Made by a program: the position numbers and the translations under genes. The notes beneath the pieces are model-generated. The model ran no database searches and was not told the origin of the DNA. It saw only the letters and a program-made list of their open reading frames with translations. A stretch of 64,000 nt of DNA from a virus (lineage: Duplodnaviria; Caudoviricetes), in IMG/VR virus record IMGVR_UViG_3300027833_000011. The stretch is one strand, 5' to 3'. Of this stretch, positions 9,906 through 19,585 are shown in pieces; position 1 is the stretch's first letter, and the number at the start of each line of letters is the position of its first letter.

Positions 9906-10187
9906 TTATTTTCTGATTATTGGCTCATAAAGTTTCAAAATGTTGTTTAATTTTTTACATTCTTCATACTTTTCATAATATTCCAATCTCTCTAGTGTTA
10001 CGTTACCATAATATATTAGGGCTTCCATATTATTATCAAATCCGTCTACCGTTGAAAAGGTAATTGTGGATTCCCACTCTCTATATGTCATTTGTTTATA
10101 GAGTTCGTAACTCTTTAAGGTGTCTGATAAGGTAGACTTATTTGTCATACCAGTATTTGTCATCACCACATAATCTTCATAGTACAT
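9906..10187 (-). CDS. small protein with C-terminal UVR-like motif
   Basis: LEYYEKYEECKKLNNIL. Confidence 0.6.
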   Translation of the reverse strand: MYYEDYVVMTNTGMTNKSTLSDTLKSYELYKQMTYREWESTITFSTVDGFDNNMEALIYYGNVTLERLEYYEKYEECKKLNNILKLYEPIIRK

Positions 10188-10240
10188 AATCGTTTACATA
10201 TTCTTATATATATCTTATCATTAGTTATAATCTATAGAAA

Positions 10241-10825
10241 ATGAGTAAAAATTATTTTGACCATAAGGAAACGATAGAGCGGTTTAGTAAAATAATCGTT
10301 ACAGGCCCTCATGGGTCAGGTAACAAAATAACTGCGTATATTATAGATTCTGATTATGATAACTTAAATCATGAGAGATGGGAAGAAACCGTTTATGATG
10401 ATGAAACCTTTAAAGATAAACTTAACTCTTCAGATAATTATGTGTCTTTTTGTCCTTCATGTTCAGGTCTACTTCACAGAACGATTGACGAACTAAAAGA
10501 TGTGTTAGTTATTTTTATGTACAAAGACATAGGAGAGATTAGGGATTATCGAGAACGTAACAACATAATACAATCAATTAATAATTATGAATATCCTGTC
10601 TATGAAAATATTATCAATAACGAAGGGTCTCACTTAAACCTAAACATTGAAAATGACGGATTAGAAGAAGTTACTTACACTCTATGGGAAAAATATCAAA
10701 AAAATTTAATCCCTAATTATATTGAAATTGAACATTCTTCATTATCCAAACATTGGAAGTGGATACCTAAAAATAAAAGAACCGACTTTAAAGAGTGGCA
10801 AACAGAAATTGGGGAGAAACCATAA
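10241..10825 (+). CDS. P-loop kinase/sulfotransferase-like protein with atypical Walker A
   Basis: IIVTGPHGSGNKIT; LVIFMYKD. Confidence 0.5.
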   Translation: MSKNYFDHKETIERFSKIIVTGPHGSGNKITAYIIDSDYDNLNHERWEETVYDDETFKDKLNSSDNYVSFCPSCSGLLHRTIDELKDVLVIFMYKDIGEIRDYRERNNIIQSINNYEYPVYENIINNEGSHLNLNIENDGLEEVTYTLWEKYQKNLIPNYIEIEHSSLSKHWKWIPKNKRTDFKEWQTEIGEKP

Positions 10826-10858
10826 CTTAATGGTATTTATATATAAACAAAAACAGAT

Positions 10859-11302
10859 ATGAAAAATTTTAACTTAATTCAAGAAGAGATTGAAAGAATA
10901 CAAGGTCTTCATGAATCAGCAACTAAAAAATTAGACTTTTCAAGATTTGAGTTTACGATAAACGAATCTGAGGAAAAACTAAACGTATTAAACGAACTAA
11001 TGGAAAAATGTGGTTCGATGATGTACGAAATCGCATGTGCTAACGAAGGGACATGTATGGAGTCATACGGTAAAATGTGTGAATCATTAAACGAAATGGC
11101 AGAATCATACGGTGAAAAATGTAAAGAGACTTCACTTAAAGAAGGGTGGATGACTGAAGAAGAGTTGAATGAAAATCCAGCATTAATGTCTTTAGGTAGA
11201 GCAGCAGCTGCAGGAGCAGGTTCAGCCATGGTTAACAAAATTATGGATGAAACTGAAGAGGCATTAGAAGAGTCTTCAGAAGAAGATTCAACTGAAGAAT
11301 AA
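10859..11302 (+). CDS. acidic late protein, probably head-internal
   Basis: GTATTTATATA upstream (10833-10843); repeated INE/LNE/LKE motifs. Confidence 0.65.
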   Translation: MKNFNLIQEEIERIQGLHESATKKLDFSRFEFTINESEEKLNVLNELMEKCGSMMYEIACANEGTCMESYGKMCESLNEMAESYGEKCKETSLKEGWMTEEELNENPALMSLGRAAAAGAGSAMVNKIMDETEEALEESSEEDSTEE

Positions 11303-11323
11303 TAATTTTTAAAATTAATATAA

Positions 11324-11551
11324 ATGTATACAATTATAACAAAAATAGGCTCAAGCGAAATCGACTTAGCATGGTTATCAGAAAACTCACAATTAAGTGA
11401 CGGAGCTTTAGTTTGTCAACACGAAGATACTGTCGTAACTTTTGATGAATTTAATAGCGTAACACACTCAATATCAGAAGTGGCTTCATTACCTGAGAAT
11501 TTCTCTCCAGAAACACATCAATTAGTTAACGGAGAAATTGTCTTAGTATAG
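11324..11551 (+). CDS. hypothetical protein
   Basis: ORF track; co-oriented operon. Confidence 0.6.
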   Translation: MYTIITKIGSSEIDLAWLSENSQLSDGALVCQHEDTVVTFDEFNSVTHSISEVASLPENFSPETHQLVNGEIVLV

Positions 11552-11985
11552 TGAGTAGATATTGTATAACCATTCCTGAATTAAATGATGATTGTTGGGA
11601 AGTTATTCCAACATATGTTAACGGTAAAGAGTTATGCGATTTACAAAACAAAACACCTAAACCGTCTAAATTCATATATGACGGAAAGACATATAACTTT
11701 TCAGAACACATAATAAGAGAGTTAACAGAAACGGAATTAAAGGATTTAACCCATTTACCTAAACAAGAACAAACCGTCAATAGACAAAAGGAAGAATATC
11801 AAAAATGGTTATTTTTGAATGATGAGTCTGAAAGGTTAGGTATCTCAAGTTTTAAAGTTGGTGAAACGAAATATAATACAATTAATAGAGAGGAATTTAA
11901 ATTAGTTGTTGAAGAAGGAAAAAAACAAGGTAAGTTTAATATTGAATATCGAGAAATGATTTTTAGTGTGTATCACTATTGTTAA
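11551..11985 (+). CDS. hypothetical protein
   Basis: ORF track; start overlaps previous stop; terminator at about 12008-12032. Confidence 0.55.
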   Translation: MSRYCITIPELNDDCWEVIPTYVNGKELCDLQNKTPKPSKFIYDGKTYNFSEHIIRELTETELKDLTHLPKQEQTVNRQKEEYQKWLFLNDESERLGISSFKVGETKYNTINREEFKLVVEEGKKQGKFNIEYREMIFSVYHYC

Positions 11986-12199
11986 TACATTTTTCATCAC
12001 TACAGGTTAAAAGGGGTTCAGACCCCTTTTTTCTTGCGCAAACAACACATATATCACTAACGGGTTCTTCTTCGTCTAAGACACTTAATGGGTCTGTAAT
12101 ATCAACATCTAAGGCGTTAGGGAATCTTTCTGCTATACGAATTACTAAGATAACTAAACAGGTTACAAACGATATGTAAAGTATTATGTTTAAAACCAT
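11963..12199 (-). CDS. small membrane-anchored protein with CxxC...C...C
   Basis: N-terminal TM helix; ICVVCA...TCSDEKC. Confidence 0.55.
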   Translation of the reverse strand: MVLNIILYISFVTCLVILVIRIAERFPNALDVDITDPLSVLDEEEPVSDICVVCARKKGSEPLLTCSDEKCINNSDTH

Positions 12200-12831
12200 T
12201 ACCTAAGGGGTGGACCACTAATCCATAATACTAAAGAACGACGAATTCCTGTTTTTACTTTATTTACTCGATGTAACATAAAAGAAGGGAATATCGTTGA
12301 TAATCCTTTTTCTTTGGGGGTGATTAAATCTATAGGGCCTGTTTTCATTTCTAAGTAACCTCCTTCATATTCGTCCTTATCAGAGAGTTGTACCGTAATT
12401 GATATTTTACGATAGTCTACTTCATCTCCGATGTCTAAATGCCAATCATAATGACCGTCTTTAGTTCCATAATATTCGGTATATTGTATTTCCTCTATAA
12501 TACTATTTACGTCAAACCCCCATAACTCATTATTAGCTTCTAATGCCATATTGATTAGTCGTTCGTAAATATATTTGGTCTCTTCGTTCATTGGAACCCA
12601 CCTAACAATAGAACTTCTAATACCTTCATTTATAACTTCTGATTCCATATCACTACCAATTTCGGCGTTTACCGTTGGTAGTGTTGAGCAGTAATCAATA
12701 ATGTGTTGGATTTCAGAATCATCAAATGAGTTAGAAAAACTATACACCTGATTAAACTCTTTCGTTCTAAAAGTGTGTGATGATAAAATTTCATTTAATT
12801 CGTTTTTGGTGGTTGGGTTTTCTCCTATCAT
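12199..12831 (-). CDS. 2OG-Fe(II) oxygenase (prolyl-hydroxylase/PKHD-like)
   Basis: YDWHLD, RKISITVQLS, FPSFMLHRV, RRSLVLW (HxD...H...R). Confidence 0.9.
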   Translation of the reverse strand: MIGENPTTKNELNEILSSHTFRTKEFNQVYSFSNSFDDSEIQHIIDYCSTLPTVNAEIGSDMESEVINEGIRSSIVRWVPMNEETKYIYERLINMALEANNELWGFDVNSIIEEIQYTEYYGTKDGHYDWHLDIGDEVDYRKISITVQLSDKDEYEGGYLEMKTGPIDLITPKEKGLSTIFPSFMLHRVNKVKTGIRRSLVLWISGPPLR

Positions 12832-18679: not shown

Positions 18680-18686
18680 GTCAATA

Positions 18687-18783
18687 TAGAGAGGTTTTGG
18701 GTGTTTCAGGGTTACAGGATTGCCGACCGTACTACTAACCCTTTTTCAATGATGTCGTGCCTAACTGCGTACTCACCTCTCTA
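18687..18783. ncRNA. candidate structured RNA, unknown family
   Basis: Outer 9-bp stem TAGAGAGGT/ACCTCTCTA enclosing inner 7-bp stem AGGGTTA/TAACCCT; GC-richer than flanks; no convincing ORF. Confidence 0.4.
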
Positions 18784-18788
18784 ACTTA

Positions 18789-18983
18789 TTATAGATAATA
18801 ATATAATCCAACAACTATTAAAGCGACTATGAAAGAGACACAACCATAACCCATAACCTTATAGTTAGATTCCATTTGTTTAGGGCTTCTACCCTGATTA
18901 CTTCGATATTGTCTAAATTTATCTTTTTCCATATCCCACTCTTTAGTTCTTCCTTTGAAAATATTTGGTTTGTTTTTACTCAT
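18789..18983 (-). CDS. small membrane protein
   Basis: Basic N-terminus, C-terminal TM helix. Confidence 0.65.
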   Translation of the reverse strand: MSKNKPNIFKGRTKEWDMEKDKFRQYRSNQGRSPKQMESNYKVMGYGCVSFIVALIVVGLYYYL

Positions 18984-19004
18984 TTGTGTTTTATTAATAA
19001 TTTG

Positions 19005-19078
19005 TGAACCCGATAGGATTCGAACCTATGACCGTCTCCTTAGAAGGGAGATGCTCTATCCAGCTGAGCTACGAGTCC
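19005..19078 (-). tRNA. trnR: tRNA-Arg(UCU)
   Basis: TCTCC-CT TCT AA-GGAGA; canonical D and T arms. Confidence 0.93.
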
Positions 19079-19111
19079 ATTTGTTGGGGGAGTGGTAGTC
19101 TCCCCCTTTAG

Positions 19112-19197
19112 TACCACGGGACGGGCTCGAACCGTCACGGACATTACTGTCCATTGGATTTTAAGTCCAACGTGTCTACCAATTCCACCACCATGGC
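19112..19197 (-). tRNA. trnL: tRNA-Leu(UAA)
   Basis: TTGGA-CT TAA AA-TCCAA; long variable arm; A73. Confidence 0.92.
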
Positions 19198-19327
19198 ATT
19201 TGATACTAATCTTCCATTAAGCAAATAACGTTTGTAATCTAATACGGTGTAAAGATAAATCAAAATTATCTTAAAACCAAATCTTGAGGTAATTTGGTAA
19301 ATATTTTATATATAATCATAAAACTCA

Positions 19328-19585
19328 CTACTCGTCAAGTGACCTTTGTATTTTTTCTTTAAGGTTATTAACCTTAGAACATAATTCGTATTCTTCTAAA
19401 ATTGTAAGGTCGTTTAATAATGAATCACAAATGTACAAATATAAAATCAAATCATTACCAAACTCAGGAATACTTTTTTTAGATTTAGCAAAATCTATAT
19501 CTTCATCTTGTATTTTAATTATTTCGTCATATAGACCCATAACCTCAATAAAACTAATATTATCCATTACCATATGTTTTTTCAC
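19328..19585 (-). CDS. small protein with C-terminal UVR-like motif
   Basis: LTILEEYELCSKVNNL. Confidence 0.6.
   Translation of the reverse strand: MKKHMVMDNISFIEVMGLYDEIIKIQDEDIDFAKSKKSIPEFGNDLILYLYICDSLLNDLTILEEYELCSKVNNLKEKIQRSLDE

Follow-up and report, generated by a model that had tools for sequence, protein, structure and literature searches.

Three small open reading frames (ORFs), here called P1, P2 and P3, lie on the minus strand of the virus record IMGVR_UViG_3300027833_000011 (Duplodnaviria; Caudoviricetes) of IMG/VR, in a stretch of 64,000 nucleotides that is referred to below as the window. Their predicted products, given here with lengths in amino acids (aa), end in a common motif, E-x-Y-E-x-C-x-x-[ILV], and it is this shared tail, its distribution and its likeness to the UVR domain of UvrB, UvrC and ClpC that are considered here.

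P1: 9906..10187, minus strand; 93-aa ORF; hairpin region at about 9930-10043; motif context YEKYEECKKL
P2: 17095..17319, minus strand; 74-aa ORF; hairpin region at about 17101-17187; motif context LEEYEKCKTI
P3: 19328..19585, minus strand; 80-85 aa; hairpin region at about 19346-19450; motif context LEEYELCSKV

The C-terminal tails read ...LEYYEKYEECKKLNNILKLYEPIIRK for P1, ...FEDLEEYEKCKTILEYKKTL for P2 and ...LTILEEYELCSKVNNLKEKIQRSLDE for P3. In a scan by regular expression of all six-frame stop-to-stop ORFs of at least 30 aa, the motif occurred exactly three times in the window, each time near the C-terminus of a small minus-strand ORF, and both E.[YF]E.[CA]..[ILV] and the looser [YFW]E.C..[ILVM] matched P1-P3 alone. 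When residues were permuted within the 184 window ORFs of at least 60 aa, E.YE.C..[ILV] was expected a mean of 0.008 times and 0 of 2000 shuffles reached three occurrences; for YE.C..[ILV] the mean was 0.19 (P about 0.001). The pattern was defined after the data had been seen, but hundreds of further phage contigs show it independently; a chance origin was rejected because of this recurrence together with the shuffle statistics. The preliminary description of this DNA, which had singled out three small ORFs with this C-terminal motif in common, is thus borne out.

To judge from length-conserved orthologues (63-100% identity) in related metagenomic phages, P1-P3 are real genes. P1 is counted as one because its orthologues have the same length at 63-96% identity. 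The orthologues of P3 are 80 aa long (82-85% identity), and P3 probably starts at the matching Met7. The ATG of that codon, at 19567, and the stop codon of a 455-aa ORF lying upstream (19560-20927) overlap (ATGGATAA), an arrangement that suggests translational coupling; the 455-aa ORF is itself without a Pfam match. P2 can be aligned over its full length with a widespread subfamily of the form M-x-N-x-Y ... [LF]-P-F-[DN]-P ... LEEYEKC hairpin, and is a canonical member of the family described below (FEDLEEYEKCKTIL). Both P2 and P3 have a second Cys in the first helix of the hairpin (C-D-x-L-L), and the P1 variant YEKYEEC (motif at 9930-9960) is a charge-swapped form of EEYEKC.

Profile comparison with hhalign among the three orthologue groups aligned only the C-terminal 17-41 columns, at probabilities of 54-92%, the value of 92% being that of the P3 group against the P2 subfamily over 30 columns. 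Because only the C-termini align, the N-termini of P1-P3 are not detectably related, and because 17-41 columns align, the common element is about 30-40 residues long and extends beyond the nine-residue motif. The earlier statement that the ORFs are otherwise unrelated therefore holds within the reach of these shallow profiles. Full-length paralogy of P1-P3 was considered and rejected as unproven, since hhalign aligns their C-termini only.

Database searches gave these proteins no name. Megablast of the region against phages returned tRNA matches only, and neither Pfam nor PHROGs assigned a family to P1-P3 or to ten family representatives; a weak match of P3 to DUF7276 (E 8.6e-4) was below the cut-off and was seen in just 1 of 57 hairpin segments. 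By tblastn against GenBank phages, P2 had one match and a 141-aa family member had none, so that the family is essentially missing from those deposited GenBank phage records that were searched.

A family of small viral proteins

A scan of IMG/VR DNA for L-E-E-Y-E-K-C-x-x-[ILVM] gave at least 120 matches. Among the pattern matches listed, 106 of 125 were complete ORFs of 65-162 aa, in which the motif lay at most about 45 residues, and mostly 10-20 residues, from the C-terminus and the N-terminal sequences formed at least 12 clusters. P1-P3 resemble these proteins in carrying E-x-[YF]-E-x-C-x-x-[ILVM] 10-25 residues from the C-terminus of a 65-160-aa protein. The preliminary description had supposed a shared tail on variable N-termini, and this is indeed a real conserved module. 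Its signature, in a C-terminal hairpin, is [YF][FY]-x-x-[LF]-E-(E)-[YF]-E-(K)-C-(A)-x-[LIV], within the extended consensus h..hh.[YF][FY]..[LF]EEYEKC[A].[LI]K.[IL]. In matches found with models rather than with the pattern, the natural core was E-x-[YF]-E-x-C (variants EDYEKC, ERYEQC, EKYEEC, ENYEMC and EEYELC), the Cys being invariant in every true match examined.

The same pattern gave 34 matches in 596 Gb of prokaryotic sequence (185,579 species), where by our own calculation, assuming uniform base composition, about 26 would be expected by chance. Because only three of the 34 are true members (Flavobacteriaceae, Saprospirales and Ca. Muiribacterium, two of them from Bacteroidota), all on contigs of metagenome-assembled genomes, the family appears to be essentially virus-restricted. 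A word-index search (the 'longer' search) found 214 significant proteins among 8000 scored, and the best 120 of these 214 were 85-161 aa long, with no Pfam domain and no fusion. Family members are named only 'hypothetical protein' in their sources, the nearest ESM Atlas clusters were viral hypotheticals in 30 of 30 cases, and a literature search found no paper with the string EEYEKC. No family in Pfam, PHROGs or the PDB fits the hairpin proteins, and searches of PDB sequences with the profiles A1 and A6 gave no match to UvrB or ClpC. Taken on their sequences, the hairpin proteins are apparently a large, undescribed, virus-only family of small proteins.

Membership was also scored with a family model built from 54 segments of other phages, the window sequences being left out. 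P2 scored 44.8 bits (E 3e-13) and P3 scored 12.1 bits (E 0.005); the result for P1 is taken up in the Discussion. Among 261 unique tails, the residues at -1 and +2 from the Tyr were of the (-,+) charge class in 241, (+,-) in 4 and of like charge in none, the (-,+) class being inflated by the search pattern. The reciprocal swap of EEYEKC to EKYEEC is seen in four unique sequences, including the P1 motif and that of locus L147. From this E/K to K/E swap the two positions may behave like an i/i+3 salt bridge, although the inflation of the (-,+) class makes this no more than a hint.

All 30 large viral records tested held 1-4 copies, often clustered within 2-3 kb. For the phage of the window, the genome-wide copy count rests on a close relative, of which a 92-kb fragment (G001 and G002, one and the same IMG/VR contig) holds the three orthologues and a fourth paralogue, four copies in all. 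The fourth (L298:160-480(+), equal to G001:C1:79459-79779) encodes 106 aa (...KLEELEWYESCHNVLKV...) with the tail ...ELEWYESCHNV. Its counterpart would lie about 20 kb before the start of the window, so that the phage probably has at least four members.

Clustering of the genes around 101 family loci showed clade-specific synteny only (PhoH, RNase HII, DnaJ and a sigma-like ORF), and no universal neighbour gene across subfamilies was found at these loci. At L022:642-1349(-) and 41 other loci, members of the largest hairpin subfamily (141-157 aa) are accompanied by a conserved 236-aa neighbour with a weak match to Sigma70 region 2 (E 4.9e-4, below the cut-off), and by further conserved neighbours of about 261, 93, 112 and 393 aa; this neighbourhood may be a transcription-related module. 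Separately, three proteins of 1676-1814 aa (P0020, P0021 and P0023) match the middle, non-hairpin part of the full-length family profile A2 (13 sequences), in 7-8 repeated stretches with E values of 5e-7 to 2e-4.

Predicted structure of the hairpin

The AlphaFold2 model of P2, made from a 17-sequence alignment, is confident and compact (predicted local distance difference test, pLDDT, 87.4; predicted template modelling score, pTM, 0.75). Helices span residues 2-18, 24-30, 45-57 and 61-73, and the hairpin lies within a compact four-helix domain, with L-E-E forming the turn and Y-E-K-C opening the last helix. A helical hairpin like that of UVR had been foreseen for these tails, and for P2 the model provides a helix-turn-helix (45-57, 61-73); the model of P1 is too poor to speak to this. 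By helical periodicity (Y0, C3, A4, L6, I9/10, 13), the Tyr and Cys would lie in a hydrophobic stripe packed against the helix before it, with the acidic residues at the N-terminus of the last hairpin helix.

Foldseek with the P2 model returned nothing from the PDB at E <=2. The best rows of VIA-align were TPR/PPR/Sel1-like helical repeats, at Z scores of 4.2-5.9 that are generic for helical proteins. Rows for UvrB or the ClpC M-domain were found in neither set of results, by which such a fold is not excluded. TPR-like proteins are also where the chance EEYEKC matches in bacterial genomes fall (...ALEEYEKCIQLQPD...). In TPR repeats, however, Y-E-K-[AC] lies in the middle of helix B and is followed by a Pro turn, and Pfam TPR had no match at threshold among the 57 hairpin segments.

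Comparison with UVR domains

UVR domains are carried by UvrB (as its C-terminal domain), UvrC, the ClpC M-domain, McsA and the plant proteins CLPF/EXE/UVR1-4. The window itself encodes a protein of this kind, which served here as comparator only:

ClpC-type AAA+ unfoldase: 28808..30835, minus strand; Pfam AAA, AAA_lid_9, AAA_2, ClpB_D2-small and UVR

This protein has two AAA+ modules and a genuine Pfam UVR match of 23.2 bits at residues 283-313, in the M-domain (about 29897-29989), and no match to Clp_N. The stretch TQNYEIAAEL, to which the tails had been likened, is present in it (TQNYEIAAELRD).

Judged by the P2 model, the family hairpin resembles the UVR motif in being an alpha-helical hairpin of some 35 residues whose second helix opens with an aromatic-Glu-x-small-small-x-[LI] stretch. 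Each is also found as a stand-alone module combined with varied partners. When the hairpin profile A6 was aligned by hhalign with 17 UVR domains, EYEKCa.L fell on dFEkAA.LRD, the register that had been predicted. The alignment covered 17 columns at a probability of 6.4% (P 0.0058), and its score of 13.4 was reached by none of 150 column shuffles (mean 6.3, sd 1.5, maximum 12.0). Intermediate sequences such as YEKCARIRD and YEKCSILRD, of the form YEKC[AS]x[IL]RD, score up to 11 bits on a UVR model of our own; its 17 genuine domains are those of UvrB, UvrC, ClpC and small proteins encoded in 12 bacterial genomes, together with the window ClpC. A viral cluster of 63 aa, with UVR in 32% of its members (score 0.83-0.86), is the nearest in the ESM Atlas to bear a Pfam domain, and serves as a lead only.

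There are differences as well. Pfam UVR (PF02151; cut-off 21.5 bits) had no match in P1-P3 at E <=10 and none in the 57 hairpin segments, and in a six-frame search of five phage records every match lay in a large ORF (273-693 aa, ClpC being one of them) and none in a small hairpin ORF. Our own UVR model gave the window ClpC 50.9 bits and the three ORFs 0.1, -0.3 and -1.6 bits (ranks 45, 61 and 158 of 740 six-frame ORFs), and the hairpin family model, conversely, found neither the ClpC M-domain nor UVR. Of the UVR signature [FY]-E-x-A-A-x-[LI]-R-D, the stretches Y-E-E-C-K-K-L-N-N (P1), Y-E-K-C-K-T-I-L-E (P2) and Y-E-L-C-S-K-V-N-N (P3) keep the aromatic residue and the Glu, have C-x for A-A, and lack R-D. 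In the family at large, the invariant Cys stands for the first Ala, the R-D pair is usually missing, and the first helix ends in [YF][FY], which UVR lacks. The family is also essentially restricted to viruses. The UVR resemblance first proposed therefore stands in its register and in the shuffle test, but it does not extend to recognition of P1-P3 by the Pfam UVR model or by our own (both about 0 bits), to the R-D pair or to the hhalign probability. We describe the hairpin as cysteine-bearing and UVR-like, its homology to UVR being unproven.

Gene order and co-occurrence with ClpC

The preliminary description had gone on to propose that P1-P3 are adaptors or regulators that dock on ClpC (or on UvrB/C); docking on ClpC fails the available comparative tests of gene order and co-occurrence. 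In the window, 9.2-18.6 kb separate P1-P3 from clpC, and the intervening genes include tRNAs and oxygenases. ClpC is widespread in phages (at least 590 confirmed stretches in IMG/VR), and a homologue occurs in 8 of 30 large hairpin-bearing viral records, all eight of which hold 3-4 hairpin copies; the six records of at least 90% completeness all lack it. When 12 large records were chosen for ClpC instead, two had a hairpin match, and there was none in a 297-kb record that is 99% complete.

Around the best 80 ClpC loci, a hairpin ORF lay within 10 kb of clpC in 16, all of one clade whose ClpC is 59-62% identical to that of the window; there it is 0.6-4.5 kb downstream of clpC on the same strand, with variable genes between. 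The other 64 loci, which include the nearest relatives (99%-identical), had no hairpin ORF within 10 kb. In a further clade (G003, G028) the gene order is clpC, hairpin gene, clpP. This adjacency is clade-specific synteny of other subfamilies and does not directly concern P1-P3. A host ClpC is a possible target, since proteins of ClpC size that carry a UVR motif are encoded in Bacteroidota genomes. In chloroplasts, UVR-domain proteins are enriched among the interactors of ClpC1 (PMC8889267). All of these associations run along clade lines, and none bears directly on P1-P3.

A different small protein keeps a closer association with ClpC. In 27 of the 80 related phage ClpC loci, a divergently oriented gene immediately upstream of an N-domain-less clpC encodes a small protein (114-149 aa in six examined; open frames of 121-170 aa) with genuine UVR in all, as at these loci and 24 others among L221-L263:

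L234:9245-9703, minus strand: divergent UVR-protein gene
L237:9329-9823, minus strand: divergent UVR-protein gene
L226:9447-9821, minus strand: divergent UVR-protein gene

The six examined have two tandem UVR motifs (QEFExAAKLRDQIK ... QNFEEsIKLRDQIK). Like the family members, they are small phage hairpin proteins from the same group of ClpC-encoding large aquatic phages, which brings to three the clades with small hairpin proteins next to phage clpC. They differ in having two genuine UVR motifs (E 1e-20 to 1e-6 on our own model) without the Cys signature, and in their fixed position beside clpC. They are a stronger candidate for an adaptor or regulator than the Cys-hairpin family; our own UVR model detected no homologue of them in the window.

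The ClpC of the window belongs to a proteostasis gene cluster that spans 21452-32978:

21452-22294: matrixin-like peptidase
23832-24611: papain-family C1 peptidase
27701-28750: M42/M20-like peptidase, next downstream of clpC, in the place taken by clpP in other phages
31119-32978: Hsp70/DnaK, divergent and full-length

ClpP was not found in the 92-kb record of the closest relative, and the window lacks homologues of the genes that follow clpC in other clades. Nine tRNA genes (15204-23785) are interspersed with a set of enzyme genes, in the minus-strand accessory region to which the hairpin genes also belong:

8897-9469, 12199-14516, 17387-17950: glutathione-peroxidase-like, carbamoyltransferase-like and two 2-oxoglutarate (2OG)-Fe(II) oxygenase paralogues

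Discussion

We tentatively favour, at a probability of about 0.45, a reading in which the hairpin is both a constant fold and an interaction or oligomerisation module, set on varied N-terminal parts in small accessory phage proteins. P1-P3 would be diverged members of a family of small (65-160 aa), all-helical phage proteins, whose hairpin, a cysteine-bearing cousin of the UVR alpha-hairpin, would have been joined to at least 12 N-terminal parts, the family spreading within large phages through local duplications in their accessory regions. Such proteins would most likely be small phage regulators or host-takeover proteins, in which the hairpin would self-associate or dock on a common partner while the N-terminal part would give specificity. 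The comparative data argue that a common partner would not be specifically the phage's own ClpC.

Several points weigh against this reading. An exhaustive search with the full-length profile A2 found only 14 proteins, that profile being too narrow, and the estimate of family size accordingly comes from the pattern and word-index searches. Most of the family sequences were retrieved with a pattern that forces LEEYEKC, and their conservation is thus partly by construction. P1 went unrecognised by the leave-out family model (-3.4 bits), and its AlphaFold2 model is unusable (pLDDT 48.5); its orthologues, 67-80% identical, carry the canonical EEYEKC and score 15-18 bits on the same model. Finally, an interaction module is read from conservation and modularity only, and folding alone, through helix capping, core packing and a salt bridge, can largely explain the conserved residues.

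This last point leads to a serious, if unlikely, alternative, that the motif is purely structural and that P1-P3 are fast-evolving paralogues of one helical fold with separate functions and no common partner. The integration of the P2 hairpin in a compact domain of pTM 0.75, the place of the Tyr and Cys in a hydrophobic stripe and the E/K to K/E swap, which fits an intrahelical salt bridge, are what such a fold would lead one to expect; the MAFFT alignment of all three groups, moreover, brings M-x-N, Y and F positions into register, paralogues form tandem clusters in other phages, and no gene co-occurs consistently across subfamilies. However, profile comparisons detect nothing in common N-terminal to the hairpin, and a range of 65-160 aa with at least 12 unrelated N-terminal clusters is a wide one for a single fold. 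The invariant Cys, where UVR and TPR hairpins have Ala, and the near-invariant surface acidic residues also exceed what packing needs. That same Cys could instead be the functional centre, with hairpins that dimerise through a disulfide or through a bridging metal or cofactor and so act as a redox- or metal-dependent switch. Its invariance in every true model match, and the second Cys in the first hairpin helix of P2 and P3, would suit such a role, which we nevertheless regard as very improbable, given that each chain has one conserved Cys, that the second is not family-wide, that helical periodicity points the first toward the partner helix within the hairpin, and that no metal-binding signature was seen.

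The remaining alternatives take the UVR likeness at face value. If a UVR-type tail bound the M-domain hairpin of the N-domain-less phage ClpC, or a host ClpC, P1-P3 would be adaptors or regulators that deliver different targets. The shared register with an hhalign score above all shuffles, the YEKCARIRD and YEKCSILRD intermediates, the hairpin genes near clpC in two other clades (G003/G028 and the 16 of 80 loci), the multiple copies in all eight hairpin-selected records with ClpC, the recurring theme of a double-UVR protein beside clpC, the chloroplast interactors of ClpC1 and the UVR-bearing, ClpC-size proteins of Bacteroidota all speak for docking of this kind. It is quite unlikely all the same, because neither UVR model gives P1-P3 more than about 0 bits and the family model misses the ClpC M-domain, because ClpC is missing from most of the 30 hairpin-bearing records and from all six near-complete ones, and because 10 of 12 large ClpC-bearing records have no hairpin gene. 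In the window, P1-P3 lie 9-19 kb from clpC and clpP was not found; most other ClpC loci, those of the nearest relatives among them, have no hairpin gene nearby, and where one is adjacent the synteny is that of a clade and of other subfamilies. A broader form of the idea, also improbable in our estimation, is that the cysteine hairpin is a virus-specific UVR derivative that plugs hundreds of otherwise unrelated small phage proteins into UVR-bearing machines; if true, the ClpC M-domain and the UvrB/UvrC of host or phage would be the targets, and phages would possess a widespread modular adaptor or decoy system that reprograms proteolysis or repair. Least credible of all is mimicry of the UvrB/UvrC UVR domain to interfere with host nucleotide excision repair. 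The similarity to UVR domains, UvrB and UvrC included, is weak and consistent in register, but there is no match at the level of models, the R-D pair is missing, and the window offers no repair-related context.

Small early phage proteins, most of which show no recognisable features, are among the main sources of new inhibitors and regulators of bacterial machinery. The invariant E-x-Y-E-x-C hairpin tags a very large set of small proteins across aquatic phages of different sizes, and it offers a handle for finding such proteins and for asking what reads the tag. The comparative tests reported here counsel caution where motif likeness is the only ground for inferring a 'ClpC adaptor'. Should there be a common partner, the hairpin would represent a general phage-host interface; if there is none, it would be a compact and very evolvable mini-fold.

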